A DNA stretch of 64,000 bases from a virus (IMGVR_UViG_3300037961_002813:32001-96000), one strand, 5' to 3'. Shown: positions 31,361 through 61,100, numbered from the stretch's first letter. Program-made: numbers and translations. Notes: generated by a model not told the origin, from the letters alone.

Positions 31361-31699
31361 ATGGTGGAGTATGACTTCTGTGATTGTTGTAGTCCTACCG
31401 AACTTGCTTTTGCAGTGATGAAAGCAAAGAAAAAGTCCAAGCCGTTTCACGGTTATAACCCAAATAGGCATCACCGAAAAGGTGGGCTAAACGCTAAAGG
31501 TAGGGCGGCGGCTAAGAGGAAAACCGGCGCAAACTTGAAGCCGCCTGTAACCACCAAACCGTCAAAACTCAAGCCCGGCTCTAAGAAAGCAAAGCGTCGT
31601 AAGTCTTTTTGTGCGAGAATGGGTGGTATGAAAGGGCCAACTTCTAAGAAGGGCAAATTGACACCAAAAGGTGCGGCATTGAAAAGGTGGAATTGTTAA
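31361..31699 (+). CDS. Basic phage protein (DUF6321-like)
   Basis: GGLNAKGRA...LKPPV...RRKSFCARM.GMKG...ALKRWNC. Confidence 0.75.
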   Translation: MVEYDFCDCCSPTELAFAVMKAKKKSKPFHGYNPNRHHRKGGLNAKGRAAAKRKTGANLKPPVTTKPSKLKPGSKKAKRRKSFCARMGGMKGPTSKKGKLTPKGAALKRWNC

Positions 31700-32190
31700 T
31701 GACAGCGTTTAACCAAGCGTGGGATATATTAAAAATGCGCTTTAAAGATTTTCAAGGTAAAGCAAAAGGAATGCAAGATGATATTAAACATAGATATGCA
31801 AAAGAACACTCAATGGGTTATGGCGACTCAAATACAATGCCATTTCATGAACAAGAGACAGTTAATCAAAGCATAGTAGATAGATTAGTACATGATAAAA
31901 TGCAAGAAAACATGCAACAAGGTAGAGTAGGCGAGCAAACTACAGATGCATTAGCAAGTAATAAGCCTTTATTCGTACCTAGATATGATGCTCGTACAAT
32001 AGACCCTCGATTTACAGTAAGACAAGATATACAAGATGAAATGCCTTACTCATTTAGGGATTTATACACTGAAAACCCGCCAGTTAAATTTTACAACCCG
32101 GAAGATTATTCACACCTTTCAAAACCAACTCTTACTGAAAAAGATATGGAGATGTTGAGAAGGTTCGACACTAATAATTTTGATATATAA
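31699..32190 (+). CDS. Hypothetical protein with N-terminal AFxQAWxxLK tag
   Basis: ATG at 31699 (TAATG overlap): MTAFNQAWDILK. Confidence 0.7.
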   Translation: MTAFNQAWDILKMRFKDFQGKAKGMQDDIKHRYAKEHSMGYGDSNTMPFHEQETVNQSIVDRLVHDKMQENMQQGRVGEQTTDALASNKPLFVPRYDARTIDPRFTVRQDIQDEMPYSFRDLYTENPPVKFYNPEDYSHLSKPTLTEKDMEMLRRFDTNNFDI

Positions 32191-32202
32191 GGTGGAATTA
32201 AC

Positions 32203-33012
32203 TTGAATGCATTTAAACAGGCTTGGAATTTATTAAAACAAAAAAATAGTGTAGATTATAGTAGGTTACCAAAGGCTGACTTGGCTATGATGAATGCGCT
32301 TGCTAATCTTGGGTATCCTATTTTTCCCAAAACTCCTACAACACCAACTAAGAATCGTTTATTTCCTACTGAACAAGAAGAAATAAGAACTCATCATGAC
32401 CCATACTTTTCCATAGATTATGAAAATGATGAAGATGTTAGAAATGATTTAGAAGAAATTATGGAACAACAGGATAAACCACTTGGTTATGCTTTAGGTT
32501 TGGGTAATGAAGATTTTGATGAGGTTCGGGATGAGGTAGGATATGATTCAAAAGGGAATATGAAATATTTTGCCCCTACAATACACCATACAGATAGAAT
32601 AAGAAATTTAGGAAGAACACTGCAACAAATGACCGGGCCAATTGGTAATAACGAACCACAAATAACAAGAAATGATAAGCAAGTATTTCAAGATTTTAAA
32701 CAAGTAGACCCGCTACAGTTTGATAAATTTAACCAAGCATATCTTAACAGAAATCAATTTAAACCATTTTATGAAGCCGAAAAAGTTTTGTTTAATAACC
32801 CTCAATCTTTTGGTCGAAATGCACCGAATGAAGGACAAATACAGCAACTTAGAGAAGATTTTAATTTAGACGATGCAGAATATAGAGATATTGGTTCTGC
32901 TTTACAATTTATGAATACTCCTACTGAACAAAAAAGACTGTTTGAATTTGGTGATACACCGCATGCAGAAAGATACCGGGAAATGTTAAGTTCTTTAAAT
33001 CAAGACCAATAA
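32203..33012 (+). CDS. Hypothetical protein with N-terminal AFxQAWxxLK tag
   Basis: MNAFKQAWNLLK; SD GGTGG. Confidence 0.7.
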   Translation: MNAFKQAWNLLKQKNSVDYSRLPKADLAMMNALANLGYPIFPKTPTTPTKNRLFPTEQEEIRTHHDPYFSIDYENDEDVRNDLEEIMEQQDKPLGYALGLGNEDFDEVRDEVGYDSKGNMKYFAPTIHHTDRIRNLGRTLQQMTGPIGNNEPQITRNDKQVFQDFKQVDPLQFDKFNQAYLNRNQFKPFYEAEKVLFNNPQSFGRNAPNEGQIQQLREDFNLDDAEYRDIGSALQFMNTPTEQKRLFEFGDTPHAERYREMLSSLNQDQ

Positions 33013-33043
33013 GTTTAATTTGTAAACTACTTTAGGCTCGGAC

Positions 33044-33220: not shown

Positions 33221-34053
33221 AGGTAACCGTCTATGAGGTTGGCCCTCGTGACGGATTGCAAAATTTAAAACAATTTATACCGACTGAAATTAAAATAGGC
33301 TTGATTGATGAATTATACAAAGCCGGTTTAACTCATATTGAAGAAACATCATTTGCACATCCAAAGTATGTACCACAGATGGCTGATGCTGAAAATGTGT
33401 TTAACAAAGGTTCTGTGCTTGTAATGAACAAGCGTGGTCTTGATAGGGCGTTAAGTGTAGGTGCTGAAAAAATAAATATTGTATATTCACCATGTGAAGA
33501 GTTTAATATCAAAAATTTTGGTAAAACAAGAAGTGAATTAATCACAATGTACTACACAATGCTTAACGGAATACCTAAAGAAAATATAAGAGTCTACATT
33601 TCTATGGCGTTTGGGAGTCCGTATACCGGCGTAATATCGCCTAAAATGATGCGTTTATGTATAAAAGATGCAAAATTGTTGGGTAAAACGGTAGTTTTCT
33701 CGGATACCGTAGGTGCGGCTACAAAAGAGGAAGTAGCATTGTGGGCGGATATGGCGAAAGAGAATAATTTGAAAGCCGCTATTCATATTCATCATAACGG
33801 AGATGAACAAAAAGCAATTAGAACAGTAAAATATGCTTTATTGGAGGGTATTAGAGAAATAGACTCTAGTATAGGCGGTTTGGGTGGCTGTCCTTTCGTA
33901 CAGGAGAGTGGTGCTAACTTGTCTACTGAAACATTAGTACGACATTTGAATGTATGGGGTTTTGATTGCGGTATAACTGAAAGAAAATTACAACCGGCTT
34001 TAAAAATTGTAAGAGAAATAAAAGAACTTCAAGAGTTAATGTTAGTAAAATAG
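33217..34053 (+). CDS. hmgL: Hydroxymethylglutaryl-CoA lyase (DRE-TIM metallolyase)
   Basis: YEVGPRDGLQN, SFAHPKYVPQMAD, DTVG, HIH, SSIGGLGGCPF..GANLSTE. Confidence 0.92.
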   Translation: MKVTVYEVGPRDGLQNLKQFIPTEIKIGLIDELYKAGLTHIEETSFAHPKYVPQMADAENVFNKGSVLVMNKRGLDRALSVGAEKINIVYSPCEEFNIKNFGKTRSELITMYYTMLNGIPKENIRVYISMAFGSPYTGVISPKMMRLCIKDAKLLGKTVVFSDTVGAATKEEVALWADMAKENNLKAAIHIHHNGDEQKAIRTVKYALLEGIREIDSSIGGLGGCPFVQESGANLSTETLVRHLNVWGFDCGITERKLQPALKIVREIKELQELMLVK

Positions 34054-35421
34054 ATGTTGATTTCTTGGCTCAACTACTGTTGGGTTTTCTTCTTTATAGT
34101 TTTCAGCCATTAATTGTATAGTTCTGTGCATAAAAGGGTCAATATCTTCAATTAATGTACCGTTATTCGTCGGTGTCATTTTATGTGTGCGGTCAAGCAT
34201 CATTATGTCGTCAATAAATTCTTGTGGTAATTCTTCATTGTGGTGGAGTTCTACTGAACCTTTTACTAATAACTCCCATGCTAAATCCATAGGTTCACTT
34301 TTGTATTTCTCATCTTTTCTTGCTGTAATAGCCGCTTGTTTTTTTCGTCTTTGATTTTTTTGTCTATTTTTACCACCCATAGGTTTACCGTCTATTTTTT
34401 GCCTTCTTGCTACATGTTCTTTAAATTCATTTTTACTTAAACCGTGAGCATCAATAAGCATAGTATTATTTTTTCCAAATTGGTCGCCTGTAAACGGTTG
34501 TCCACCTCTAATAAAAGGAGTACCACGATACATAACAGTAGTAAGTATGGGTTTTTTTGTTCTAGGGTGTTCTTTAACAACTGCAATAATTGAGTCACCT
34601 CTACTACGAGAATCAGCCGAACTTAATCCATGTTGTCTTAATACATCTTTAGGTATTTCTTTCGCTTCTCTAATGTTATCTAATAAATGAGTTCGTATAG
34701 CAAATTCTTTGGTAGGAACATTTCTTTTATAGTTTCCATCTTTATCTAAATATGGGCTTAATGCAGAATGTATCCTATCTATTATTTGCTGTCTTTCCTC
34801 ATCTTTTTCAAATCTATAATTCCCAAACAATCTAAAATTAGCATGGCCTATAGTGCCTTCATAAAATTCTTTAGGTAATCTACCTTTAAAACTAGGTTCT
34901 GCATTAGAGTCAAATTGAGGTCGTTGAGGTTCGGGTTCGGGTTCAATTTTTGGAGGTAAATTTTGAGCCGGAATATCTAAAGGTGCTTTATCAGCATCTA
35001 TATTTTCAGTAAAAAAACCACCTTCTCGATTTCCTGCTAATACATTTGTAAAATTTTGTCTTGAAACCCCGGAATAATCATCCGGTAGATTTAGATTAGG
35101 TTTATTATACATATCTTGTATATGTTGTTGTACAGAAGGATGGACATATTCTCCCTTTGATACACTTGCACCGGCTTTGGCTTTGTCAGCCATATCTTGA
35201 GCCGATGACATTTGTGCTTGATTCTTTTGCTGTTGCATTTCTGCTCTTCGTTGTTGCATCTCCATGCCTGTTTGAGCCATACTTTGAGGCTTAAGTTTTT
35301 CTTTTATGGCTTCTACTGCAACTTGACCTGTCTTATCCTTTGCTTTACTTGCAACACTTGCTATTGCGCCACCAATTACCCGTAAAGGTACGGCTTTACG
35401 CACACCAACAGGTCGGCTCAT
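34042..35421 (-). CDS. Hypothetical protein with EPMDLAWELLVK tag (antisense within the late region)
   Basis: 459 aa ORF; tag at 34261-34296. Confidence 0.75.
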   Translation of the reverse strand: MSRPVGVRKAVPLRVIGGAIASVASKAKDKTGQVAVEAIKEKLKPQSMAQTGMEMQQRRAEMQQQKNQAQMSSAQDMADKAKAGASVSKGEYVHPSVQQHIQDMYNKPNLNLPDDYSGVSRQNFTNVLAGNREGGFFTENIDADKAPLDIPAQNLPPKIEPEPEPQRPQFDSNAEPSFKGRLPKEFYEGTIGHANFRLFGNYRFEKDEERQQIIDRIHSALSPYLDKDGNYKRNVPTKEFAIRTHLLDNIREAKEIPKDVLRQHGLSSADSRSRGDSIIAVVKEHPRTKKPILTTVMYRGTPFIRGGQPFTGDQFGKNNTMLIDAHGLSKNEFKEHVARRQKIDGKPMGGKNRQKNQRRKKQAAITARKDEKYKSEPMDLAWELLVKGSVELHHNEELPQEFIDDIMMLDRTHKMTPTNNGTLIEDIDPFMHRTIQLMAENYKEENPTVVEPRNQHLFY

Positions 35422-35483: not shown

Positions 35484-37868
35484 GTGAGCAAGATTTTTGT
35501 TAAACAGCAAACCACCTTACGAGACTACGGAATGGAAAGAGTAGATGAGTTTCCAACCATTCCTTATGACCCATCTCAACTAACACCCGGTATTGAAGCA
35601 AGTTTGCAAAACCAAAGTGATTCATATAGAACTGCACCTATGGGTGAAGGTCATATCGTATCTAATATTCGACCTACTAACTTACAAGAATATATGGATA
35701 TGTTACATGACGATTATTATACAAATGTAACTGCTTTTAGTCATCCAACTGAACTTGAAAATATAGAAAATGACCTTGAAAATACTAGAAATACGGTTAT
35801 GCGTCAAATATCTAATCAAGTAGGTGGGTATGGTCCAAATAGAAAATTTCAATTATTTCCAAAAGGCATACCATCTAAAACACCAACAGGGTATGAAAAT
35901 GCTAGTCATACAATGTTAGATATGCTTAGACAAATGGATATTAAAGAAAAAGGATTTAGTGATATTACACAAGAAATGATAATGAATGCAAAAATTTTTG
36001 GTACAGGTGACCCTTCAAATGCGCCCAAACCTCTTGATTTAGATGAAGATGGAAACCTTGCGTATGTTAAAGAATTAGAAAAAATAAAACGCACAAGAGC
36101 AATTAATGATGCTCTAAAAAATACATTACCGGGTAACTATGATAAAAATTTTGCTAACTTAATGGAATCTTTTAAAGGAAAGCGTAGAGAAAATTTAATG
36201 TCATCAAGAAACTTTTTTAATAATTTAGTTAGAAGATATGGCCCTCAAGGTGCAACCGAGATATTAAGAAATCACCCTGCTTTAAAATTAAACCGTCAAA
36301 GAAGTTTAGCCGAAGTATTACCTGCATATCAAACTGAAAATCCATTTAACCCGGATGGCTCAATAAAACCCGGTGCTGTACCTCCTGTAACAGCAGTTAA
36401 GCAAATGTCTGCTAGTGATATTAAGAGATTAATGCTTGGCGCAGGGCTTATGCCTATAGGCTCACAAACTGATTCGGATAATGAAGGATACGAGCGTACT
36501 CAAGTAATACCTCGCTTAATGAGGCAATTTGATAAAAATAGAAGTCAGCAAAGTAAAGACCTTTCCGCACTTGAGAAACCAATGATTATTGCTGAACATG
36601 ATTCACAAAATCGTGGCGGAACACAAGCCGGAAGTTTTGTCTCACCTACAACAATACCGGATATTCGTAGAGCAATTGTAGCATCAAAAAGAGAACCACA
36701 GAATCTAAGAATGTTAGGTGTAAGAGGTTTAAATCCTGTTGATGATTTTGTACAACAACGAGCATCTACAGGACAACAAGAAGCAACAAGTGAAGGATAT
36801 ATACACTCAAGAATAGACCCTAGTAGACTTGTACCAATTGAAATGCCAAAAGGTGATATTCCTGCTACAGTTAGAGGTGATGTATCTATTGATGTAAGCG
36901 ACCCAACACCTTCACAAGAGCAAAGAGTAGCCGCTATACTTGGTACTGTAGATGAAGGTTTTAAACCCGGTATTACAAGAAATACTATAACACCTAAATT
37001 AACTAGAAGAGGTGGAGGAAAACGATTTAACTTACAATCATTATTTAGATTTAATAAAGATGGATATACTGATGGTCGAAATGCGATTAGAGGACACATA
37101 GCAAGAAATGAAGATAGAATGAAAGATTTAGATGAATCACTTGAAATATATTATAAAAGATTAAAAGACTTGAATAATATGACAAGTCAAATTACAAATC
37201 CACACACTTTGGTTAATCATGAAGATTCAATAGAACACGCAGAATTCCGTATTGATGATTTAGAAGGAGAAAAAGAAAAAGTTAATACTCAAATACAACA
37301 TCTTAATCATAGATTAAAATATTATAATCAAGATTTCCAAGAAGCAGTTAAGCAATATGCAGACGGATTAAAAAGTATAGATGAAAAATTACCATTCCTT
37401 ACCGATATGCCACTAGAAGGTATTGATTTAACTGATACTGCAAAATACTTTACATCAAGAGATGGTTATGATGGTGGAACTGAATTAGATGACAGGAAAA
37501 AATTAAACCTTAATTTAGACAAACATGGTTTCCCGTTAAAAGAAGATGGCACTGCTATGACATTAGATGAAAAAATTAACTTAGTAACAGACCCTAATTT
37601 AGAAGAATTAGCAGAAAATATATTTAAAAATAGAAATAGAGTTTTAGACCAAATAATGCGCTACAATACAAAACTACCTTTCGGTGATGACACACCAACT
37701 AAAAAGAAAATTGGAGTTCAAGAATTAGAAGATTATATTAAAAGACTAGAATCTGCAAAATATGATGAACTAGATGCTAGAGGTTATAACCCGGATAATA
37801 AAGCATTTGAAGAATACTTAAACAATTTAAGAAGAGATTACTACGAAGCAAGGGTGGGAGTGGTTTGA
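35484..37868 (+). CDS. Large hypothetical protein (possible virion cargo; ART-like segment, coiled coil)
   Basis: 794 aa; MLGVRG...EGYIHSRIDPSRLV segment shared with the next gene. Confidence 0.75.
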   Translation: MSKIFVKQQTTLRDYGMERVDEFPTIPYDPSQLTPGIEASLQNQSDSYRTAPMGEGHIVSNIRPTNLQEYMDMLHDDYYTNVTAFSHPTELENIENDLENTRNTVMRQISNQVGGYGPNRKFQLFPKGIPSKTPTGYENASHTMLDMLRQMDIKEKGFSDITQEMIMNAKIFGTGDPSNAPKPLDLDEDGNLAYVKELEKIKRTRAINDALKNTLPGNYDKNFANLMESFKGKRRENLMSSRNFFNNLVRRYGPQGATEILRNHPALKLNRQRSLAEVLPAYQTENPFNPDGSIKPGAVPPVTAVKQMSASDIKRLMLGAGLMPIGSQTDSDNEGYERTQVIPRLMRQFDKNRSQQSKDLSALEKPMIIAEHDSQNRGGTQAGSFVSPTTIPDIRRAIVASKREPQNLRMLGVRGLNPVDDFVQQRASTGQQEATSEGYIHSRIDPSRLVPIEMPKGDIPATVRGDVSIDVSDPTPSQEQRVAAILGTVDEGFKPGITRNTITPKLTRRGGGKRFNLQSLFRFNKDGYTDGRNAIRGHIARNEDRMKDLDESLEIYYKRLKDLNNMTSQITNPHTLVNHEDSIEHAEFRIDDLEGEKEKVNTQIQHLNHRLKYYNQDFQEAVKQYADGLKSIDEKLPFLTDMPLEGIDLTDTAKYFTSRDGYDGGTELDDRKKLNLNLDKHGFPLKEDGTAMTLDEKINLVTDPNLEELAENIFKNRNRVLDQIMRYNTKLPFGDDTPTKKKIGVQELEDYIKRLESAKYDELDARGYNPDNKAFEEYLNNLRRDYYEARVGVV

Positions 37869-40780
37869 AACGGGGCAAAATAATTGTTAAACAAAGTCTA
37901 AGTGATGCATATAGGCAATACTTAGAGGATGTAACTATCCCAATGAATACTTATTTTGAAGCACCCGAAGAGTTTGTAACTACTAAACCATCTATTTATC
38001 ATTCATTAAGATTGCAACCTGCTACTGATGCAAGAACAGGTCGAATAAGAAATTCACCCGCAATAGCAAGAGCATTAGCAAGTATAGACAATTTACAATT
38101 TCAAGATGATATAAAAAATTTCTCGTTACCATTAAACACTAATCAAGGACAACCGCTATACGGTAGACATGTTTATCCCGGTGAGTTACATTCTTTAAGT
38201 CCTAATTTAACATCACATACATCAGTACCCGATTTACCAAGAACTTACATAAAAAGATGGGGTGGTGGAGAAAAGTACAGACCGCTTAATTTGTATGGTT
38301 TTACAGGTGATGCCGCTACTCCGCAAAGATTTACTAATCAAACATTACAACCGGAAGGAATAATTTACGGTAATTTAGATACAAATGATGTAGTACAACT
38401 AAACACTAGACCTGCTTCTGCAATTAGATTAAGTCAAGTAGCAAGAGCATTGTCACCGTTTCATCCCGAAAGAGATGTAAAAGATTTAACTGAACGCTCG
38501 GAAGATTTAGCAAGAGATATTATGGATGCGGGTATTCCACCAATATTAGCAGAATCTAATGTAGATACTAAAGGTGTAACTCAACATTTACCATTTAGAT
38601 TAGATAATAAAATAGATGTAAAGGAAGCACATGACCCATTTGTTCAATATGATATGGGTAATTTAAATCGCCCGACCCCGGAAGGACTTGAACAGTTTAC
38701 ACTTGATTCTATTAGAGCAGGTGAACCAATGGACATCGCTATGCAGTTGTTGAAAGAAGAGATACCATATAGCAGTAGAGATTATCCACCACAAGAAATT
38801 TCTATATCTACAGGTAATCCGCTTGTAACACCTAAAGTTGCAGGTGAAACACCCGAAGTTTGTAACATGCCGGGATGTGATTCGGGTCTACCTCCTGTGA
38901 TGTATAGAAGAATGGCTAATCCGATTAGAAGTATAGATAATCATGAATTTATGTGTGAGCAGTGCGCTTACAAACATGACTTACAATCATTACTTTTCGA
39001 TAAAATGATTAAAGGTGAAATAACTCTAATGGAATACGCTATACGAAAAGCCACTTTACCTACTTTACGAGAAGCAGGTTTAAGTTTTGAAGATTTAGAT
39101 GCTTTAAGATTTATTCCTAATTATCGTAAAACAAGTTTTTATCAACCACAACTATTAAACAAACCTGCTAACATAGATTATGAAATAAGAACTGCATCAA
39201 AAAAACCGGAATACAAAAGAATACCCGGATTACAAACAGAACTTGGACCACCACAAAATAATATACATTCTTATTTTGTAAACCCTGCAACACGCTTAGG
39301 TGCTTTAGGGGGAGATGTGACATTCATGGCTAGACCTACATTATTAGGTATTAGAAATAATAATAATAATTATGGAGTTGATTTTTGGAGGACTAAAAGA
39401 CAAGGGGCAGGTAGTGAAGGTGGAGAAGGTTTAATTTACGGTGAACTACCAAAACAAAATTTTGTAGAAATTCCAATAAATTATACTGCGGCTGATGCGA
39501 TGAGGGCTAAATTAAATTTAGACCACTTTATGAATACTTTTCACATACCGGAAGAAGAAGCATTTGAAATGTTAGCCACTAGATTTCCCGAAGTGCATAA
39601 TATAGCATCACAATTACCAAATGTAAATACTCAAGATACTTCATGGCAACAACCTGCACAATACAGGGGTACTAATCCATTACTCTTAGATGAGATAGAT
39701 ACAAAAGTAGCAAGCGAGCCAATGGATATTGCTATGCAGTTGTTGAAACAAGAACCTTTACAATTGAGAAATAGTGCTGAACTTGCCGAATTAGCAAGAC
39801 AAGGTGACACGGAAGCATACAATGAAATGATGGAAAGAACAGGTGATTATTACTTGGCTAATGAAATAACCGGAGAACCCGATATGGAGGCTAACTTAGA
39901 GGCTTACGGGGCTGAAACAGGTAAAAATCCATTTAAAACTCCCCCTATTGGGCGTACAAATCAAATTCAAATCCATCAACCTCCTGTGACTCCTATTCAT
40001 GCTGATAAAAAATTACATAATTGGCAATACAAAAACGCAAGTGAGCCGATGGAGATTGCTATGCAGTTGCTAAAGCGTGAATTACATCCCGGTAGAGATA
40101 TAGAGGGTTATCTAAAAGATGATGGACATTATGCCGGTGAAGAAGAACTTTACAATTTAAATGACCCCGAAGTACAAAATTTTGTAAATAGATTACATTT
40201 AGATAAACAACCACCCGTACATCTTATTCCCGAAACTTTAGGTATGGATTTAGAATATGTTGAGCCGGAGTTAAGAGTTGAAAATAGAGATACTAAGTTA
40301 TATCATCCTATTATGATGGATGAACATGAAAACTTAGATAAATTCCCCGATAGAAAAATAGTTGAAAGAGAAGATGGTACAAAAGAAGAACTAGTTTCTA
40401 CAAGCGACCCAACAAGTGATGTTGTTGGAGTTGGAAGAACAGGTCGTACTCTTGTATCTTCAAAACCTACATTTGAAGGTATACCATTTAGTGAAGAAAC
40501 AGGCTTTACCCGTAGCGAACCGATGGAGATTGCTATGCAACTACTCAAAGAGCGTGTAAGCCCCGAAGCCAAGCGACACAAGTTAGAGTATGATAAGAAG
40601 TATGAATCTTCACCGGAGAGAGTAAAATACCGTGAAGAATTAAACCGTGAGCGTAGGCGTAGACACATTATGGGTAGGGGTGGACCGGATATGAGCCACA
40701 CCAAAGACCATACCATTGTACCGGAAAGCCCTCATACTAATCGGGCAAGGCATTTTAAAGACAAAGGAACTCTTTTGTAA
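37865..40780 (+). CDS. Modular polyprotein-like protein: four EPM(D/E)IAMQLLK separators, C-terminal HNH-like module
   Basis: Repeats at 38723, 39716, 40043 and 40517; terminal DMSH...NRAR module. Confidence 0.8.
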   Translation: MKRGKIIVKQSLSDAYRQYLEDVTIPMNTYFEAPEEFVTTKPSIYHSLRLQPATDARTGRIRNSPAIARALASIDNLQFQDDIKNFSLPLNTNQGQPLYGRHVYPGELHSLSPNLTSHTSVPDLPRTYIKRWGGGEKYRPLNLYGFTGDAATPQRFTNQTLQPEGIIYGNLDTNDVVQLNTRPASAIRLSQVARALSPFHPERDVKDLTERSEDLARDIMDAGIPPILAESNVDTKGVTQHLPFRLDNKIDVKEAHDPFVQYDMGNLNRPTPEGLEQFTLDSIRAGEPMDIAMQLLKEEIPYSSRDYPPQEISISTGNPLVTPKVAGETPEVCNMPGCDSGLPPVMYRRMANPIRSIDNHEFMCEQCAYKHDLQSLLFDKMIKGEITLMEYAIRKATLPTLREAGLSFEDLDALRFIPNYRKTSFYQPQLLNKPANIDYEIRTASKKPEYKRIPGLQTELGPPQNNIHSYFVNPATRLGALGGDVTFMARPTLLGIRNNNNNYGVDFWRTKRQGAGSEGGEGLIYGELPKQNFVEIPINYTAADAMRAKLNLDHFMNTFHIPEEEAFEMLATRFPEVHNIASQLPNVNTQDTSWQQPAQYRGTNPLLLDEIDTKVASEPMDIAMQLLKQEPLQLRNSAELAELARQGDTEAYNEMMERTGDYYLANEITGEPDMEANLEAYGAETGKNPFKTPPIGRTNQIQIHQPPVTPIHADKKLHNWQYKNASEPMEIAMQLLKRELHPGRDIEGYLKDDGHYAGEEELYNLNDPEVQNFVNRLHLDKQPPVHLIPETLGMDLEYVEPELRVENRDTKLYHPIMMDEHENLDKFPDRKIVEREDGTKEELVSTSDPTSDVVGVGRTGRTLVSSKPTFEGIPFSEETGFTRSEPMEIAMQLLKERVSPEAKRHKLEYDKKYESSPERVKYREELNRERRRRHIMGRGGPDMSHTKDHTIVPESPHTNRARHFKDKGTLL

Positions 40781-43596: not shown

Positions 43597-44216
43597 TAGA
43601 GATGTTTGGACTAAGTGGAAATAATCAAAATTCTAATACCTTAAACTTAGGTGTTCCATCTCAACAACCTATACAAACAGCCAATCCGTGGGCGCAACAA
43701 CAACAACCTAATCCGTTCATGGCAGGTTTATTTGGAGGACAACAACAAGCCAATCAATTTATGCAACAACCAATGCAACCACCAAGTGAGATAGAAATTC
43801 AAATGGAGTTATTAAAACAACAAGCAACTATTGAAAGATTTGTTGCAAGTAGTCAAATGGGAGTATTAATTGAAATGATGGGAAGTGTAGTTACTTTAAG
43901 TGTTTTAGAAATATTAAGAAATGCTACTTTTACACTCAACGAAGATGATGGCACTTTGCGTTTAGATACTACAACATTACCTGCTAATTTACAGACTATG
44001 AGTGCAGAAAATATAGCAAGTCAATTTACTAATTTACAAGCATCAGCACAACAAGTAGTCAATCAAAGTGAAATGACACAACAACAGTTAGCCGCATTAG
44101 CACAACAATCCATGATGGGTGGTGCTTTAGCGGCTTTACAAAGTGAAGGAGTTATGGAGAAAGTTGGAGGCGGAGTGGGAAGTTTCGCTCGTTCAATGCT
44201 AACAGGAGGAAGATAA
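43593..44216 (+). CDS. Gln-rich hypothetical protein
   Basis: 207 aa low-complexity ORF. Confidence 0.7.
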   Translation: MIEMFGLSGNNQNSNTLNLGVPSQQPIQTANPWAQQQQPNPFMAGLFGGQQQANQFMQQPMQPPSEIEIQMELLKQQATIERFVASSQMGVLIEMMGSVVTLSVLEILRNATFTLNEDDGTLRLDTTTLPANLQTMSAENIASQFTNLQASAQQVVNQSEMTQQQLAALAQQSMMGGALAALQSEGVMEKVGGGVGSFARSMLTGGR

Positions 44217-52135: not shown

Positions 52136-52317
52136 GTTGTGAATGTGGACATTGTATTGGAATGGATAGTGCGTTTGACTTTTTAGAAAAGAAACTATGC
52201 CCCGAAGGTAAAGCGGCGGCAAAGCGTAAATTCAAAGTTTATCCGTCAGCCTATGCTAATGGATGGGCTGTTCAATATTGTCGTGGTAAGTTTAGAAAGA
52301 AGGGGAAGAAAAAATGA
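52120..52317 (+). CDS. Small basic phage protein (DUF5872-like YPSAYA module)
   Basis: AAAKRKFKVYPSAYANGW, preceded by MDSAFDFLEK. Confidence 0.7.
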   Translation: MGDTVSCECGHCIGMDSAFDFLEKKLCPEGKAAAKRKFKVYPSAYANGWAVQYCRGKFRKKGKKK

Positions 52318-52479: not shown

Positions 52480-53493
52480 ATGACTAAAGTATTAATCCGC
52501 AAGAACTTGAACCGATGGTTCAAAGAAAAGTGGGTTGATGTTAGTCGTAAAGATAAGGATGGTAAGCACCCGCCATGCGGTAGGTCAAAAGCCAAGACTT
52601 CAAGCAAAGGTTATCCAAAGTGTAGACCGAGTGTAAAAGTTTCAAGTAAAACTCCAAAAACTTCCGGCTCAATGTCCGAAGGGCAAAAACAAGCCGCTAC
52701 TAAAAGAAAGCGTAGTAAGAAACAAGGAGTCGGTGGTAAGCCTACAATTGTAAAAGAAGATTTCATCAATGACCCTATGAGTAGTTTTAACATGATGATG
52801 GCTTTACAAGATGAAGCGTATAAATTGGCTGAATTAAATATGCCTTACTCTCGTGAAATATATCCAAATCGTGATGAATATGAAGATGCTTTAGAATTGG
52901 AAGGAGAATATCAACTTATGCAGATGATGACTAATCCTAAGTATGCACCTCTAAGAGAAAGATATATGCAAAGTATCCCAAAAATGACTGAAACAGATGG
53001 GTTTTCTCAAGATTTTATTGATACTTACAAAGGCAATCCAATAGAAATCGCATTTAGATTATTAAAAGCACCTCGTATACCTCGTAAAAAAGGACAACCT
53101 GCGGGTTCAAAGAAGCATTCCGATTTGTATACTGATGAAAACCCAAAAGGAACAATACATAATTTAGGATTTAAAAATCCTCAAAAAGCAAGACAGTCAG
53201 TTAGTAAAATCAAAAACAGTAGTAGAACTCATGCTCACAAAACTCAAGCGGCTATCGCTATGGAACAAAGAGCAAGAGAAATGGGTAAAAAACAAGAAGC
53301 AGGTATATACCGTAGATTCATAGAGCAACAGAAAAAGAAAACAAAGGAGATGAATAAAATGGATGATAAGAAGAAAAAGAAAGGCGTTGTAATGGTCATC
53401 GCTATTGGTGGTAAGCCACCTAAAGGTATGGAAAAACCAAAAGATGACAAGAAAAAAGCATTTGATGACGCTTGGAATACATTAAATAAATAG
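52480..53493 (+). CDS. Modular basic protein (RWFKEKWVD...YPKCRP and HSDLYTDENP modules) with tags
   Basis: Modules I recall from marine phages, joined by NPIEIAFRLLK; ends in AFDDAWNTLNK. Confidence 0.75.
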   Translation: MTKVLIRKNLNRWFKEKWVDVSRKDKDGKHPPCGRSKAKTSSKGYPKCRPSVKVSSKTPKTSGSMSEGQKQAATKRKRSKKQGVGGKPTIVKEDFINDPMSSFNMMMALQDEAYKLAELNMPYSREIYPNRDEYEDALELEGEYQLMQMMTNPKYAPLRERYMQSIPKMTETDGFSQDFIDTYKGNPIEIAFRLLKAPRIPRKKGQPAGSKKHSDLYTDENPKGTIHNLGFKNPQKARQSVSKIKNSSRTHAHKTQAAIAMEQRAREMGKKQEAGIYRRFIEQQKKKTKEMNKMDDKKKKKGVVMVIAIGGKPPKGMEKPKDDKKKAFDDAWNTLNK

Positions 53494-53499: not shown

Positions 53500-54810
53500 T
53501 TGGTGGTCATTATGTGGGGTAGTGCTTTACTAGGTGATGAGTACGACCTCGCTGTACAACCTGCTGATGATTTAACAAAAAGCGTTTTATCGAATTTATC
53601 ACAGCATCCCGAATTTACAGTTACTACAGCCCCTATAGAAAAATCATCAAGTTTGTTTTCTAATGACGATATTAAATCGTATAGTTTTGCACCTAACGGT
53701 GATGGGTGGTTAGAGAGTACATACGGTAAAGACGCTAACTCAATAATTCGTATGTGTAGAAAAATGCGAAGATTAGATAAAGATAATCGTGAAAGTATTG
53801 ATGCAATCATTGATGACATTCGCACAATAAAATCTATGGAAATAGAAGCCACTATTGGTAATCTTTCATGGAGTGAAGGTTTAGAAGATGTAATAAAAAA
53901 TATAGGTCTTAATGATAGAAGCCTAAAAGCACTTCGTAAATTCGGTGAATCTCGTTCATCTTCTTTACAAAAAGCATGTCAATTGTATCTTAAATCTATG
54001 ACCGTATTGAATTTATTAAATGAAAAGTTAGATTGGGGAGTTGATGACCAAAAAGAATGGGCTAATGCTTTACAGTTGAAAAAAGATGCTCGTAAAATGT
54101 GGTCTAACACTTTGCATCAAATTGATAGTATATCAAAAACAGATAAAGCAACTCTTAATTTTATTTCCGATGAATTAACAAAATCCGGTCCACTTAGTAG
54201 TCGTGAGTTAGTTCGTAGAGGTGTTGGAACTATATCTAAATCTGTTACCCCTACAAAGGTAGGTATGCTATTGAAAATGTACGGTGAAGAGATAGATATT
54301 TACAAAAGTAACAGTAGAGGTGACTTTGTAAAAATTAATTCTCATGGTTTAATTATCAAAGATATATGGGCTTATGCCGCAGGTTTTCTTGATGCTGACG
54401 GTAGTATATTCATAACAGAAAGGGGCGAACCAAGAGCGACATTTATCGCTACAGGTGATAGGGGTCGTATGCAGTGTGAAGAGTTACACAAAGCACTAGG
54501 TTGCGGTAGATTAGTTCTAAATCAAAGAATACATAAAAACAGTGTCCGAAGCCAACACCGACTCATATTCTCATCAAAAAATGATTTAAGGCAATTATTG
54601 AAAGGTATATTACCCCATTTAAAAATGAAATCGTTGCAAGCAAAGGCTGTTTTATCCTTTGTAGATGAAAAAGATAAGATGAGAAAAGACGAATTGTATC
54701 GTGTTGTTACATATAACAATTGGAAAGACGACAAGAAAAAGGCCGATAGTTTCTTGAGTAAATGGGGCGTGGATGCAGATACAATAGGTAATTATGCGGA
54801 GAGTTTGTAA
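53500..54810 (+). CDS. Protein with C-terminal LAGLIDADG domain
   Basis: YAAGFLDADGSIFI...ILPHLKMK..QA; about 280 aa helical N-terminal extension. Confidence 0.8.
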   Translation: MVVIMWGSALLGDEYDLAVQPADDLTKSVLSNLSQHPEFTVTTAPIEKSSSLFSNDDIKSYSFAPNGDGWLESTYGKDANSIIRMCRKMRRLDKDNRESIDAIIDDIRTIKSMEIEATIGNLSWSEGLEDVIKNIGLNDRSLKALRKFGESRSSSLQKACQLYLKSMTVLNLLNEKLDWGVDDQKEWANALQLKKDARKMWSNTLHQIDSISKTDKATLNFISDELTKSGPLSSRELVRRGVGTISKSVTPTKVGMLLKMYGEEIDIYKSNSRGDFVKINSHGLIIKDIWAYAAGFLDADGSIFITERGEPRATFIATGDRGRMQCEELHKALGCGRLVLNQRIHKNSVRSQHRLIFSSKNDLRQLLKGILPHLKMKSLQAKAVLSFVDEKDKMRKDELYRVVTYNNWKDDKKKADSFLSKWGVDADTIGNYAESL

Positions 54811-56597
54811 TGGCAGATGATGAAAGTAGAATTAGTCGGTTTCTTTCGACATTGAGTAAACCCTTCAAGCGTAAGTCATCACCAACCCCGACTATGCCGC
54901 TTTGGACAAGTGGTATACAAGAACCTGTAATGGCACAGGGTATCACGATACCTGCTCTTTATGCAGTAAGCACAGAATGTTTGATTCTAAGAACCGTACT
55001 TTCTAAATTAAGACAAGAGATGTTTAGAAGAGGATACTATTGGGAAAAGAAGTTCCATAAGAAATGTGTTCAGTGCGATGAAGAATATCAACACGATGTA
55101 CAAGTATGTGAAACATGCGGTGGGGAAGTTAGAGGACCGGATAACGAAGAATTAGTATATGCTAAGTGGTTACTCAAACAAGAAAATAGTATGGAACAAC
55201 AGTTCTTACATGTTCTACATGAGATTGAAAATGACCTAAATATTGTAGATGACGCATTTATGATATTTGTAAAAGAGTATTATATTGACCCGGAAACAAA
55301 AGAGGTCGCATTTTATCGTGTAAAAGAAATGATTAGAGGTGACCCTATATTTATGAGAATAGTTGCTGATAAAAGAGGGGTAAGAGGTGGTCGTTACAAG
55401 ACTTGTTTAATTCACCGTGACCAAGTAAAAACACACGCAGAAGATGATAAGTGCGAAGTTTGTGGTAGCGATTTACACGATGTACACTATGTAAACATGG
55501 CAGGTAGTGGTAAAACACAATACTTCGTTGAAGGTGAAGTACTCCATGTCAGTAAATATAATCCATCTAAATTATATGGCCGTTCTCCTGTCAATACAAT
55601 GTGGCGACAAGCCATGACATTAACAGCGATGGATAACTACATGTATACTGCTTATCAAAAGCGTAGAATGCCTAAAGGTATTATTTCTGTTACAACCGAC
55701 AATCTTGAATCAATGAAGTCATTTTGGAAGTCAGTAGATGAAAAAATGGAGAGAGACCCCCACTATGTACCTAAAGTTGGTATTGAATCTAATACCGGTA
55801 GAGGTGGTGTCAATTGGGTTAAATTCATGGATACCCTAGAAGAGATGCAATATATTGCTGTCCGTGATGAAATAAGAAATCGAATTGCCGCTTATTTTGG
55901 TGTATCAAGTATATTTATGGTAGACAATGGTAAGTCCGGTGGTCTTAACAACGAAGGTCTACAGATTCTTGTTACTAATCGTGCAGTAGAGTTTGGACAA
56001 AAAATTTACACTGATGTTTTATTCCCTAAGATTCTAAAACAAATGGGAGTGTTTGATTGGAAATTAACACTATATCCAAACGAAGAAGAAGATGAAATTA
56101 CAAGACTACGCCGTGATGAGCAAGAGTTGAATGTAGCACAAAGAATGGCTCAACTCGGTTTCGTGCCGGAATTGATTAGTGGTGATACAAGTAACGACAT
56201 TAAATTTGTTTATCGTAAACCTAAACCCGAAGAACAACAAGGCGCACCACCTCCGGGTGGCGCACCACCAATGATGCCACCGGGTGGAGGAAGAATGCCT
56301 CCGGGTATGCCAATGGGTGGTATGCCTCCGGGTATGCCAATGGGTGGTATGCCACCGGGTATGCCAATGAGAGGTATGCCTCCGGGTATGCCAATGGGTA
56401 ACATGCCAATGCCACCTCCACAACCGGGTGGTCAAGGTGTAGGAATACGCAACCGTGGTCCTGCCGCACCCGAAAGAAGAACCTCACCGGGTAGTGGTGC
56501 GCCTGTAACAAGTGTACAACAAAGAGGACCACCACCATCACTTGGACAGCAGAATGTAAACACCATGCAGAATGCTCGAAGATTTAGAGGTGCATAA
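54810..56597 (+). CDS. Portal protein
   Basis: EVLHV...LYGRSP, PKGII, EMQY...RNRIAAYFGV...N.E portal pattern; lies between TerL and the protease. Confidence 0.88.
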   Translation: MADDESRISRFLSTLSKPFKRKSSPTPTMPLWTSGIQEPVMAQGITIPALYAVSTECLILRTVLSKLRQEMFRRGYYWEKKFHKKCVQCDEEYQHDVQVCETCGGEVRGPDNEELVYAKWLLKQENSMEQQFLHVLHEIENDLNIVDDAFMIFVKEYYIDPETKEVAFYRVKEMIRGDPIFMRIVADKRGVRGGRYKTCLIHRDQVKTHAEDDKCEVCGSDLHDVHYVNMAGSGKTQYFVEGEVLHVSKYNPSKLYGRSPVNTMWRQAMTLTAMDNYMYTAYQKRRMPKGIISVTTDNLESMKSFWKSVDEKMERDPHYVPKVGIESNTGRGGVNWVKFMDTLEEMQYIAVRDEIRNRIAAYFGVSSIFMVDNGKSGGLNNEGLQILVTNRAVEFGQKIYTDVLFPKILKQMGVFDWKLTLYPNEEEDEITRLRRDEQELNVAQRMAQLGFVPELISGDTSNDIKFVYRKPKPEEQQGAPPPGGAPPMMPPGGGRMPPGMPMGGMPPGMPMGGMPPGMPMRGMPPGMPMGNMPMPPPQPGGQGVGIRNRGPAAPERRTSPGSGAPVTSVQQRGPPPSLGQQNVNTMQNARRFRGA

Positions 56598-57937: not shown

Positions 57938-57946
57938 GGTGATATT

Positions 57947-58117
57947 GTGAAACCTATAGCGGTTAAAAAAGCAAATATCAACTCTAAACTTAGAGAAGCG
58001 GGAGAAGCGGGAATGCCTATAGTATGTAGAAAGTGCGGTGGCACAAATACTTCGGGTTGTAAATTACATCAAGGTATGGATATACACGCATGTCCTTTAT
58101 TTGAACCGCTATCATAG
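57947..58117 (+). CDS. Small Zn-finger protein (56 aa)
   Basis: Manual translation MKPIAVKKA...CRKCGG...C..H...ACP; SD GAGGTGA. Confidence 0.55.
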   Translation: MKPIAVKKANINSKLREAGEAGMPIVCRKCGGTNTSGCKLHQGMDIHACPLFEPLS

Positions 58118-58120
58118 GCG

Positions 58121-61100
58121 GTGAAAATAATGATAGATGATTTCAACATTCGTAAAAATGAGTTTGTAATATCTCTTTACGATGGTTTAGATTTATCTCG
58201 AAGTGCCGCAGAATACATTATGGCATGGGAATCTTTAGAAAAATCCCCTAGCGATTTATTTTCTTTAAATCTTAAAGATACTGCTGAAACAATAATTAAA
58301 TTCGATAAAAAGGAAGGTGTAGGTTATTTATTGGCTAGTATGCCTACTTTTGGTGAGCCAACAAATCATGTTTGGGCTAACGGTTTAATTCGTAGAGAAG
58401 GTAGAGGTCACTCGATATTTCCTACTTATAGAGCAGATGTGAAGTCATCTTACACAGATACTCACTTTCCTTATCATGAAATGAACCATCCATTAAGGCA
58501 GATAAACCACGCTACAGGTTTACCAAATATGTTTGAAGTGCTTAGGTCATTTGCGTTAGGTGGTGCAAGTACACAAGAAATGGAGATGGAGAAAAAGTGG
58601 TATAAGACTATGACAGAAAAAAATAGTCCTTTAGTTACCGGCATAAAAGCGGGTTCTAAAACTATACCAATTCTTGGAGATATTAATGCACCGGGAACTG
58701 TAGCACAGCATCAACATCATCTGTACGAAAGAGATTATAGAAGATGGAAAAAGCAAAATGCAGATTTAGAAACAGAACTCCAAAGTAGAGGTTTGAAAGG
58801 CAAGGAGTTGGAAAGTGAACTGCGCCATAGTCACTTTGATGATAAAGTAAAGGAGTGGACAAGTAAAGAAGGAGAGTTAGGTTTAGACGGTTTTATGTAC
58901 GGTCTTGAATGGTTTACACCCGAAGAAAGAGATTCTATTGAAGAACAGTTACACGAAGGTATAGATAAAAAATCAACACTTACATTACCCAATGGTGAGA
59001 AAATACCCACCGCTAGAATAGCAGTAAATAATTTACTTAGAAGAACACCCGAAATGAACTTTATGCTTAGGTCAAATCAAAATTTTGGCCGTAATGCTCA
59101 TTATCGAAATCAATCTAATGAAGAAGATTATTCTCAAGGTGAAAACAGATTCATTAGAAGTGCTTTAGGAGAATATGTCCATAATCAAAACGATATGTTA
59201 GACTATCCTATCGCTGATTATATATTGAGTGAGATTAATGAAAAATATGCTGTTGATGATAAAGCACCTTTACAAGTACTACCGTCACTTCAAATTCATA
59301 AAACAAAACCTAAAGATAAATATAATTATCAAGATTTACAAAGAGCATCTAAACACAAAAGACTCTCTATGGAAGATTTACTTTTCTTAGCGGGATTTGA
59401 CCCTAACACGAAACAGTTGATTGATGACCACCCCATACATGGTAAAATGGATGGGCCGATAATTGATTTACCAACGCTAGAAAAAGTACAAGACCATGCA
59501 CGACGCAACGGAACAGTTCAACAATTAGCAAAAGAAATGGTGAATGATTTAGCGTTTTTAAAATCACCACACGGTCCTCATCCCGATGAAGAAAAACAAG
59601 AATTTTGGGAAAATCATCCCGATGGATATACATACGGTCCGGGTAAATTTTATTCTTCTTTGTATGCTAATATACCGGGTATGAATGTATCACCTGCAAC
59701 ATGGATTGAATTTTTACACTCTATGTCACATGACAAAGATAACTCTATCATGTTTCAAACAGACCCAAGTAACTATCAATTTTGGATGCCAAATCAAGAT
59801 AACACTATTTTAGGAATGCATTTCGGTCCACTGTTTGCGCCACCCATAGGGGCTTTTGATGCTACTAAGTATAAATTTGATTATACTCCCGAAAAAATGC
59901 CTTTGCAAAATATATTTTCTCCTTTTGGTACAGGTAAATCTTCTAATCGAACTGAAAAAAATAACTATACCGAGCATAAATCGGCAATCAATCCAATGTA
60001 TGAGTATGCAATAAGAACAGCAAATCCTGCTTTTAAACAACAACTAGGTACACATAATCAACATTTAGAACCACACACTTCAACTAATCCTACTATTATG
60101 CCTAAATCTACATCTATGTATGGTACGCATCCTAGTGATAGTAGATTACACGAAAGAGCAGTTAAAGCACAATTACATAACACATTTTTGAATAGAGTTG
60201 GTCATCCATTTACTCCACCAAAAAAAGCCATAGCGCAACTTAAAGATTTTTTAACAGGTGACTTAACATTATCAGCAGGTCTCGGCCTTCAAGAATTCAA
60301 AGATTATGTGGGGTGGGATTCTAAACCTACCACTTATAGTAATGTCAAAGATACTATAGAAACAGGCGATTACCCAATAGTTAGATTAGTAAATTCAGTT
60401 AGTAAAATACTCAATACAACAGATAGTAGAAAAATCAACAATTTTATAGAAAATTTGTCTGTTGATAAAAACGATGAAAATTATAAAATTCTACATGACT
60501 ATTATATAGATAACCACGATTTTGCTGTTAATGATAAAATTAATTTAGATGAGGCTAGGTCTAAATTACAAAGTGTAACATCTAAACTTCATCAAAGAAA
60601 ATTAGATGGTCCGAAAAAGAAATACCAACCTAAAACAACATCTACTGATGCTATTCAGTCTATCCTAAGATTTGGTGGTGACAATGTTTCTACTGAAAAA
60701 GAAAATAGAATTAGAGAAACTATTGATTCAATAAATGAAATGATGATGAATCCCGATTTATCACAAGAGCAAGTAATGGGTTTGAGAGAAGATTTACAAG
60801 ATGCTGTGACTCAATTAAATCAAGTTCAATTATCTGCAAAACAAAAAGATAAACCGACATCGCATTGGAAAATTAATGCTAAACAGTATTTAGATATGCT
60901 ACGGTCTCATCATGATACAGTTGTTGATTATGCTAAAAATGTCGTAATGCCGTTAGTTCTTGAACAACAACCCGATGCTTTTGACCCTAACAACCCTGTA
61001 CAGTTTATACATAATGTACAAAAATTATTGGCTGACACACAAAGACACATTTTAGCAACTGACAATCACGATTTATCTCCTGTAACTTACGGAATAGATT

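Follow-up and report, generated by a model that had tools for sequence, protein, structure and literature searches.

In phage T4, a capsid-targeting sequence (CTS) is carried by IPI-III and Alt and is removed by gp21, the prohead protease (Mullaney and Black 1996, as relayed in PMC9024508). DarB of phage P1 carries a capsid-targeting signal at its N-terminus, and DarA is cut by the protease Pro (PMC9024508, PMC12810830). Many head proteins of phiKZ, 201phi2-1, and SPN3US have a common short cleavage motif, some of them being cut multiple times, and a large mass of internal protein is ejected into the host (PMC10052503). HK97 is cut at FNK103/S104 (PMC10275583; a slash marks the junction here and below). 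In polyvalent proteins, found in phages and conjugative elements, a single chain holds 2 to 15 effector domains that are unrelated to one another (Iyer et al. 2017, PMC5512222). A conserved junction peptide is not described in that paper, in which the word "linker" occurs 0 times and archaeal viruses are absent (PMC5512222).

The sequence analyzed here was a 64,000-nt stretch of magrovirus DNA (IMGVR_UViG_3300037961_002813:32001-96000), referred to as the window. Magroviruses are abundant viruses of ocean archaea, and we know of none in culture. Dozens of unrelated modules in magrovirus proteins are preceded, separated, or trailed by one short helix ending in Leu-Leu-Lys. This tag system is probably a new form of known capsid-targeting and prohead-processing systems, and the pattern was not mentioned in the literature searched. 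The tag consensus is [S/G]-E-P-M-[D/E]-x-A-[M/W/F]-x-(x)-L-L-K (11 to 13 residues), with ends of the form L-[L/E/N/V]-K and a shortest form, M-x-[K/R]-h-h-h-K, at N-termini. Seven exact copies of the canonical EPMxxA[W/M]xxLL?K were identified across three late ORFs, all in frame and within long ORFs. The EPMxxA DNA pattern was observed 7 times, compared with 0.10 expected and a maximum of 2 in 100 shuffles. Using a tag HMM built from homologues only, nine matches were found in the window (7.4 to 33 bits), while 20 residue-shuffled copies of the window ORF translations, used as the control, gave a best score of 5.4 bits. Chance is ruled out as the source of the tag copies. Late-over-early enrichment, which the first-pass annotation had put forward as a check, was borne out by the HMM matches (8/9 in late genes), by the LLK tripeptide (14 late versus 2 early occurrences, the two sets of proteins being equally rich in Lys and Leu), and by the N-terminal K-h-h-h-K-[KQ] pattern (4/33 late ORFs versus 0/56 early ORFs). 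When weaker N-terminal, internal, and C-terminal forms were included, the tag was present on ∼14 of 27 late proteins versus 0 to 1 early protein. The DNA pattern for EPM[DE]IAM[QR]LLK occurred in 55 stretches in IMG/VR versus 1 in 185,579 prokaryote genomes; the tag is essentially restricted to viruses and is a virus-specific short linear motif.

A 971-aa tagged polyprotein is encoded at 37865..40780 (coordinates are on the plus strand unless stated). Based on the ORF, homologue alignment, and AlphaFold, it is made up of head module B (putative ART-like fold), the modules C, G, and E, and tail A, which is constant and basic. It begins with (L)KRGKIIVKQ (37865..37894) and carries EPMDIAMQLLK at 38723..38755 (tag 1, 32.9 bits; isolated helix 289-297 in AlphaFold) and 39716..39748 (tag 2, 33.3 bits; AlphaFold), followed by EPMEIAMQLLK at 40043..40075 (tag 3, 31.6 bits; AlphaFold) and 40517..40549 (tag 4, 33.1 bits), the last in front of tail A (phrog_6437-like). 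A fifth tag, EITLMEYAIRK, lies in decayed form at 39017..39049, where relatives carry EITPMEYAMQLLK. The 610-aa protein (45448..47280) combines a conserved N-domain with a single cassette and a basic tail, and its family uses the EPM[DE]xAWSxLLK subtype; its tags are EPMKDAWSTLLK (45853..45888, found with the tag HMM) and EPMDNAWSELLK (46363..46398, 21.2 bits). The 459-aa protein on the minus strand (34042..35421) has the N-terminus MSRPVGVRK (35395-35421) and the internal tag EPMDLAWELLVK (34261-34296, 16.9 bits). In the 337-aa protein (52480..53493), the N-terminus MTKVLIRK is combined with a DUF5872 part, the internal tag NPIEIAFRLLK (53035-53067) before a basic module, and the C-terminal tag AFDDAWNTLNK (53458-53490) with the stop codon immediately after it.

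The tag variant SPTELAFAVMK (31391..31423) precedes a DUF6321 domain in the ORF at 31361-31699, and N-terminal tags begin the 167-aa protein (MTAFNQAWDILK, 31699..31734), the 269-aa protein ((M)NAFKQAWNLLK, 32203..32238, tag HMM), and a small DUF5872-like protein (MDSAFDFLEK, 52162..52191; orthologues M-x-x-A-W-D-x-L-E-K). The 390-aa protein (49471..50643) has the N-terminus MAKILVKK, a second KGVLIKK, and a further variant, TPHEIGTFAAYTLLK-LR, at its C-terminus (50590-50634); the N-terminal and C-terminal forms are both kept in orthologues at 30 to 52% identity. AAEYIMAWESLEK lies close to the N-terminus of a 1,859-aa head-module protein (58205..58243) and is kept in orthologues down to 45% identity, and a further variant, SEIEIQMELLK, was found in a 207-aa Gln-rich protein (43785..43817). 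Short N-terminal forms were identified in the 794-aa protein ((V)SKIFVKQ, 35484..35507) and a 56-aa Cys-rich protein (MKPIAVKK, 57947..57970). The tagged genes lie within the morphogenetic block, on the same strand as the head genes; the block also contains the large terminase (50648..52135) and the portal protein (54810..56597). A weak candidate site, YAKWLLK, was noted by eye at the end of the N-terminal Zn-ribbon extension of the portal (55158..55178). HMG-CoA lyase-like, GTPase-like, and membrane protein genes inside the tagged block are untagged, and "late" is therefore not equivalent to "virion."

All peptides listed in the first-pass annotation, including the six KIFVKQ-type N-termini, were found in the window, and its tag observation proved stronger than first stated. 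Its positions for the canonical copies were correct, but 34261 is the end of the minus-strand motif, which starts at 34296. The N-terminal motifs likewise exist, but the coordinates given for them were ORF starts, and the motifs themselves lie at the five positions listed above for SPTELAFAVMK, MTAFNQAWDILK, (M)NAFKQAWNLLK, MDSAFDFLEK, and AAEYIMAWESLEK.

Alignment of 120 homologues of the 971-aa protein revealed a head module followed by 0 to 5 shuffled cassettes and a constant basic tail, with the tag between modules. The cassettes fall into 35 families and 36 singletons, GNAT and HD domains among them, and proteins of this family have up to 7 modules. Up to 8 tags per protein were counted in the fetched loci, and 172 tagged ORFs were sorted into 42 tail clusters. 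Between 48 and 49% of internal BLAST breakpoints lay ≤12 residues from tags (coverage, 14% of the length). The proposal that tags sit at module boundaries and end in an invariant Lys was thus upheld by the homologues and the breakpoints. In the AlphaFold model of the 971-aa protein, each tag is an isolated short helix inside a low-confidence linker, and the tag is predicted to fold, within flexible linkers, as a helix of two to three turns. The residues were invariant over 117 distinct DNA contexts, whereas the codons varied, Ser being written as AGY or TCN and Leu as TTG, CTA, CTC, or TTA; the four copies inside the 971-aa gene share only 62 to 87% DNA identity. Free codons with fixed residues indicate selection on the tag peptide, an element common to unrelated late proteins.

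The N-terminal and EPM forms had been described as two distinct patterns. However, an EAAYGSRE.. module is preceded by either N-terminal MGRILILK or internal EPMEIAMRLLK at the same junction position, so the two belong to one system. The C-terminus of the 337-aa protein is exactly the tag Lys, and just 0 to 6 residues trail the C-terminal tags; this suggests that recognition or addressing, beyond module release, is part of the tag's function. Like polyvalent proteins, the magrovirus proteins carry unrelated modules in variable and numerous orders, are encoded with late or packaging genes, have a predicted delivery with DNA, and include putative ART and acetyltransferase-type domains. Polyvalent proteins differ in being anchored by MuF or DarB-like domains and often encoding their own peptidase (PMC5512222). 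Using Pfam, no MuF, DarB-like, MPTase peptidase, or other anchor domains were identified in the 971-aa protein and 10 homologues, a search that distant versions could escape.

The start of an S78 prohead protease-scaffold fusion lies at 63751..63999, with GLKVLK/SGSD at 63790-63807, confirming the VLK-S reported before the catalytic domain. The remainder of this gene and the capsid gene lie outside the window; both were examined in locus L079. There, the protease-scaffold (L079:11551-12972, its start being window position 63751) matched PF04586 (Peptidase_S78; E value, 1.4e−10) and PF14550 (S78_2), and the adjoining gene encodes an HK97-fold capsid protein matching PF17236. No protease other than the S78 prohead enzyme was identified in a scan of the 31- to 64-kb late block and L079. 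The sequence at the HK97 gp5 site reads F-N-K/S, and the tag end has the same hydrophobic-x-Lys (h-x-K) form; as at that site, tags have Lys at the putative P1 and a hydrophobic residue at P3. Among 121 diverse capsid protein homologues (30 to 54% identity), the N-terminus differs in length and runs into [LIVF]-x-K/(A)DAPxL[TS][TS], with the Lys present in ∼112 of the 121. The protease-scaffold junction, FRILK/ED, is also h-x-K and aligns with the Lys at the end of the HK97 protease domain; HVTV-1 has VSK/AD at the equivalent place and MSK/AD in its capsid protein. Magrovirus and HK97 have the same protease family, and the putative magrovirus site has the HK97 form. HK97 differs in having one main substrate without a tagged cargo set, and it uses the delta domain of its capsid protein as scaffold; in the magrovirus, the scaffold is fused to the protease. 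Pro was not found at P1′ after the tag Lys in any of 159 downstream module families or 306 distinct 6-mers, while 18 to 26 families had Pro at each of P2′ to P6′; in untagged ORFs, Pro follows 6.1% of hhK sites. From these comparisons, the tag boundary plausibly represents a protease cut site after Lys.

We lean toward a reading in which the virus's S78 prohead protease recognizes and cleaves the h-x-Lys end of the tag and tagged proteins are loaded, cut, and delivered with the DNA. Tagged proteins and polyproteins would enter the procapsid, where the protease would act because it is fused to the scaffold, recognizing the hydrophobic-x-Lys end and cutting after Lys. The cuts would yield separate modules, namely, the ADP-ribosyltransferase-like head, enzymes of the GNAT and HD types, numerous unassigned cassettes, and small very basic domains (DUF6321, DUF5872, and phrog_6437-like), and these could travel along with the viral DNA. 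A common junction could allow cassettes to be swapped among genes and viruses with processing kept. We infer the protease as partner, the cut after Lys, and the loading and ejection of tagged proteins. The tag, its boundaries, and its late bias stood from the first-pass annotation. Its proposed cut after Lys, made by the prohead protease, is plausible, and the amphipathic docking helix, the virion location, and the injection that it envisaged are putative.

Alternatively, the tag may only dock, its helix binding the scaffold, the inner capsid surface, the portal, or another viral partner while the proteins stay uncut. We regard this as unlikely but not negligible. The conserved length of 11 to 13 residues suits a binding helix, and these residues (13 conserved) far exceed what a protease site needs. 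C-terminal tags with 0 to 6 trailing residues are poor release sites, a cut there freeing nothing, so binding may be the main role. One precedent for such a signal is the HK97 protease, whose targeting tail is C-terminal. The N-terminal signal of P1 DarB is another uncleaved or separable one (PMC9024508). Docking alone would not account for the boundary fixed after Lys, the equivalent position taken by the 8-residue N-terminal MGRILILK, the exclusion of Pro at P1′ alone, or the match of the tag end to the h-x-K sites of the capsid protein, the protease, and HK97. Against a cut site, h-x-K, as matched singly in the capsid, protease, and portal proteins, is a tripeptide that occurs often, the K-ADAP conserved in the capsid protein could be structural, and Pro exclusion at P1′ may also result if the helix usually extends one residue beyond Lys.

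The module architecture and Pro exclusion would suit any protease, and several tagged modules are enzymes able to act in the producing cell. Cytoplasmic cutting by a host or other viral protease, giving several proteins per gene independently of the capsid, is nevertheless improbable: the S78 prohead enzyme is the only protease found in the scan described above, the tag end matches the known P1 Lys of its family, and the tagged genes lie in the head-gene block and on its strand. The near absence of the tag pattern from cellular genomes also argues against mimicry of a host processing signal. It likewise leaves no host template for a motif recruiting a host protein (e.g., a chaperonin, a replication factor, or a transcription factor) to every module, which we consider quite improbable; short helices in disordered linkers are typical of linear motifs, but confinement mainly to late genes is unfavorable, and the fixed Lys boundary and Pro exclusion would be left unexplained. 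Cassettes are clearly shuffled at tags, and copies within one gene reach 87% DNA identity over 45 nt, as would suit a repeat that matters as DNA homology for cassette swaps, the peptide being a neutral linker without a partner. This very improbable explanation already fits poorly, since the residues do not vary although synonymous positions do, Ser codons of the AGY and TCN types both occurring, and since truncated N- and C-terminal forms retain the peptide pattern with no cassette beyond.

Cleavage and delivery of tagged proteins would resemble the T4 system in several respects. A short peptide common to unrelated proteins encoded with head genes was found here too, and it ends at a protease consensus (L/I-x-E in the T4 account cited; h-x-K, predicted, in magroviruses). 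The magrovirus tag is an add-on: it is missing from bacteriophage homologues of the small basic modules, as it is from DUF6321 homologues encoded between the scaffold and capsid genes of a pelagiphage. In contrast, the T4 signal as outlined in that account is N-terminal only and ∼10 residues long, whereas magrovirus tags are N-terminal, internal, and C-terminal; P1 is Lys rather than Glu, the host is archaeal, the tag is known from sequence alone, and the S78 protease is of the HK97 type and not a gp21 homologue. The magrovirus tag is predicted to work like a CTS without being a CTS member by descent. The giant phages likewise have a common short motif on many proteins, with several sites in some (cleavage being predicted in magroviruses). 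However, their cuts mostly remove N-terminal propeptides, the motif is ∼3 residues with a terminal Glu, and they have neither an 11- to 13-residue conserved junction nor combinatorial cassettes; their evidence is from mass spectrometry, that for magroviruses from genomes. Phage P1 Dar proteins are large enzymes loaded into an HK97-fold head via a short terminal signal, and some undergo prohead protease trimming and are passed to the host, all as predicted for magroviruses, but the P1 signals are protein specific, with no common consensus and no tag-punctuated polyproteins. The encapsulin cargo-loading peptide is C-terminal, has a GSL-type consensus, and binds an HK97-fold shell. Its likeness to the tag is presumably loose, consisting of hydrophobic residues ending in L-K/R and the C-terminal position of some tags.

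An ADP-ribosyltransferase as cargo may be a further likeness to T4, where the account cited names Alt, although for magrovirus module B the Z scores are weak. In the structural comparison, 39 chains reached a Z of at least 2, almost all of them being ADP-ribosyltransferase folds, the best match having a weak Z of 4.3 (rmsd, 4.2; 109 residues aligned), and a Foldseek search with the module returned no match. Arg49 and Glu164, the latter within QPEG, are invariant among its homologues.

All of the peptides listed in the first-pass annotation were found in the window. At the DNA level, the EPMxxA pattern had 7 matches against 0.10 expected, and all 7 copies were in frame, each running on into [W/M]xxLL?K. 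Using a profile of the tag (consensus [S/G]-E-P-M-[D/E]-x-A-[M/W/F]-x-(x)-L-L-K) built as that annotation had proposed, and trained on homologues with the window sequences left out, nine window sites were matched, eight of them in late genes. All nine exceeded the best score (5.4 bits) from twenty residue-shuffled copies of the window ORF translations. The ninth, at 9.7 bits, was a partial N-terminal tag without the LLK end (MSPMELAMQEI; 20180 to 20224, minus strand) at the start of an early 219-aa protein (ORF 19568 to 20245). The shuffling counts and the profile baseline ruled out chance or composition as the origin of the tag. Here, "early" (replicative) is a label assigned in the analysis to the left half of the window (1 to 31 kb, minus strand) and "late" to 31 to 64 kb on the plus strand; for the tagged block, "late" denotes shared strand and position, not expression.

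The anticipated excess in late over early proteins was also observed, with LLK occurring 14 times in late and twice in early proteins of identical Lys/Leu content. The N-terminal pattern K-h-h-h-K-[KQ] was carried by 4 of 33 late ORFs and 0 of 56 early ORFs. When weaker variants were included (43785, 50590, 58205, and others), approximately 14 of 27 late proteins were tagged, and these variants were kept in orthologues at 30 to 60% identity. The retrieved loci together yielded 269 tags on 172 distinct ORFs, whose C-terminal regions fell into 42 unrelated families. Relative to composition, LLK was three-fold above expectation in late proteins (31000 to 64000), while early proteins (1 to 31000) had 2 against ∼4 expected; this scarcity may mean that early proteins avoid the site, on counts that are small.

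Tags taken from 117 distinct DNA contexts on related contigs had invariant Glu, Pro, Met, Ala, Trp, Leu-Leu, and Lys residues and widely varying codons, with both AGY and TCN used for Ser. Within the gene for the 971-aa protein (37865 to 40780, plus strand), DNA identity among the four tag copies was 62 to 87%. Since the residues are invariant and the codons free, a repeat selected solely at the DNA level was ruled out; codon usage indicates that selection is acting on the tag peptide. The tag DNA pattern was identified in 55 stretches in IMG/VR and in 1 of 185,579 prokaryote genomes, and judged by this distribution, the tag is virus-specific. The lone prokaryote match, CAZXXH010000035.1, is a 16.6-kb contig of a metagenome-assembled genome binned as Dehalococcoidales and is possibly a mis-binned viral contig.

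The first-pass annotation placed the tags at domain boundaries, which was borne out both by splitting homologues at their tags and by BLAST breakpoints. Nearly all homologues of the 971-aa protein (n = 120) carried 1 to 6 tags, and clustering of the tag-split segments gave 35 module families and 36 singletons, arranged as a head module, 0 to 5 cassettes in varying order, and a single constant basic tail with a match to phrog_6437. Independently of tag-splitting, 48 to 49% of the internal breakpoints in BLAST alignments to the window protein lay no more than 12 residues from its tags, which account for 14% of its length. An extra breakpoint cluster coincided with a decayed fifth tag (39017 to 39049). 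This decayed copy reads EITLMEYAIRK where relatives read EITPMEYAMQLLK; two modules have thus apparently been fused, and tags can be lost. The family of the 610-aa protein (45448 to 47280) was organized likewise, using a subtype of its own, EPM[DE]xAWSxLLK. In the AlphaFold model of the 971-aa protein, each tag was an isolated short helix in a low-confidence linker, and most cassettes were also of low confidence. C-terminal tags had 0 to 6 trailing residues, one lying directly before the stop codon. The two patterns originally described, internal tags and N-terminal KIFVKQ-type peptides, are both present; their separateness did not hold, as the module beginning EAAYGSRE is preceded by either N-terminal MGRILILK or internal EPMEIAMRLLK with an identical junction after the Lys, which makes the KIFVKQ type a truncated form of the tag.

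Genes for the large terminase (50648 to 52135) and the portal (54810 to 56597) lie in the right half of the window, whose far end holds the first part of an S78 prohead protease gene (from 63751), all on the plus strand. The sequence 3′ of the window was taken from an IMG/VR locus, L079, with 98% identity to it, where a 473-aa protease-scaffold fusion (L079:11551 to 12972) precedes a 392-aa SU10/HK97-type capsid protein (33% identity to its counterpart in halovirus HVTV-1) and tail genes. Magroviruses rank with the most abundant archaeal viruses in the surface ocean; to our knowledge, they and their hosts are both uncultured, and the majority of magrovirus late genes lack annotation. The genome features match those of group A magroviruses of Marine Group II archaea (PMC5434244).

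The protease adjoining the tagged block belongs to family S78, whose type member is that of HK97, where gp5 is cut at F-N-K103/S104 (PMC10275583; slashes mark cuts or candidate cuts). The gp5 sequence at this site, hydrophobic-x-Lys, has the same form as the tag end. Among capsid homologues (n = 121; 30 to 54% identity), 4 to ∼90 residues preceded an [LIVF]-x-K site followed by (A)DAPxL[TS][TS]T.G, with Lys in ∼112 of the 121. These came from a representative-set search; a first search had given only relatives of at least 81% identity, uninformative on conservation. A covariation test for capsid lineages with Arg at P1 was discarded, since in the apparent Arg cases the Lys is shifted by one position, which makes Lys nearly universal at this site. 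The K-(A)DAP pattern is as would be expected of a propeptide junction, though it may instead have a structural reason. The protease-scaffold junction reads FRILK/ED, its Lys aligning with a Lys of the HK97 protease, and the HVTV-1 equivalents are VSK/AD where the protease domain ends and MSK/AD in the capsid protein; capsid and protease sites are thus alike within each virus.

Pro was found directly after the tag Lys in 0 of 159 independent downstream module families, compared with 18 to 26 of the 159 at each of the five positions that follow and with 6.1% after hhK sites in untagged ORFs (probability of the observed absence, ∼5e−6). A scissile K-X bond predicts such an absence and would account for it, as would a helix extending one residue beyond the Lys. 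A likeness between the tag and the C-terminal tail of the scaffold (NMSWDEVHxLA) was only loose in this genome and was dropped as evidence.

Head module B of the 971-aa protein (37865 to 38560) had a predicted fold with pTM of 0.73, and 39 chains among 48,161 PDB representatives matched it at Z ≥ 2, nearly all with ADP-ribosyltransferase folds, including Rhs TreX, Tpt1, RES toxins, heat-labile enterotoxin, ParT, and DarT. The best match obtained via this wide search was weak (Z, 4.3), and Foldseek returned none at an E value of ≤0.001 for either the whole 971-aa model or module B. Arg49 and Glu164 (in QPEG) of the module were invariant. GNAT and HD domains constitute two of the cassettes, and Pfam and PHROGs assigned no function to most tagged proteins. 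DUF6321, DUF5872, and phrog_6437-like modules are small and very basic and have untagged stand-alone homologues in pelagiphages and cyanophages; the tag is thus a lineage-specific add-on. In Pelagibacter phage HTVC131P, those small basic proteins are encoded between the genes for scaffold and capsid. This podophage encodes three tiny very basic proteins at 19582 to 20071, one a DUF6321 homologue, which are possibly DNA-associated head proteins.

That a single trans-acting partner common to all tags recognizes them is very probable. We lean toward the prohead protease as this partner, with a cut after the Lys. Both the length of the conserved part and the presence of tags at C termini suggest that binding counts at least as much as cutting. 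Tagged proteins would enter the procapsid along with the protease-scaffold, the protease would read the tag helix and cut after its Lys, and the freed modules would leave the head with the DNA; a common junction would let cassettes be swapped with processing retained. Use of the tag for capsid loading is close to an even call, and ejection of the modules into the host is rather doubtful. The complete proposal, a single genome-wide "address and cut" code that would send tagged modules to the procapsid for release by an HK97-type protease and host delivery, giving a sequence-readable effector arsenal that evolves by cassette swaps, is held tentatively.

Functionally, such a system would be similar to the T4 capsid targeting sequence with gp21, to prohead processing in phiKZ and SPN3US, and to the P1 Dar system, and its products would resemble polyvalent proteins. 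It differs in having one 11- to 13-residue consensus at N-terminal, internal, and C-terminal positions, repeated up to eight times per protein, an S78 protease with a predicted Lys at the P1 position, and an archaeal virus as its setting. The magrovirus literature searched mentions neither the tag motif nor its cleavage. If the tag is a mark for head loading and cutting, virion-delivered host-takeover proteins could be listed by sequence only, here comprising the ART-like, GNAT, and HD modules, small basic DNA-associated domains, and >150 unknown module families. For an archaeal virus that is uncultured and globally abundant, the effector arsenal carried in the virion would then be legible, the substrates of HK97-type proteases would widen beyond a single capsid protein to take in an entire set of cargo, and the junction would exemplify how conservation enables effectors to be shuffled as cassettes. 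The tag might also be usable for loading foreign proteins into HK97-fold capsids.

Several further features were identified. In HVTV-1, genes 114, 119, and 120 carry x-S-K/A-[DP] in the capsid protein, at the protease-domain end, and in a head-assembly protein (LSK/AP), which may be sites of the same type with other P2/P3 residues; the halovirus literature searched does not mention cleavage. The 112-aa protein (57003 to 57341) and the protease-scaffold (L079:12800 to 12972) share a C-terminal tail of h-x-K, ∼10 residues, [IV]P[SQ]T[QN].., and NM[SD]W[DE][ED][IV]H.[LM]A, kept in orthologues to 56% identity. This tail is a second shared element and perhaps the scaffold end that binds the coat. 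A 436-aa ORF (53500 to 54810) flanked by the DUF5872 and portal genes had no Pfam match at an E value of ≤0.01, and a LAGLIDADG-like motif (AAGFLDADGSIF) was noted in it by eye. The 390-aa tagged protein contains an in-frame tandem 9-nt repeat encoding PQQ (50272 to 50448). At its N terminus, the portal is extended by ∼120 residues with a zinc ribbon (weak DZR match; 54810 to 55180), closed by YAKWLLK/QEN, a candidate propeptide junction, and its C-terminal tail carries an in-frame tandem 27-nt repeat encoding MPPGMPMGG (56295 to 56429).
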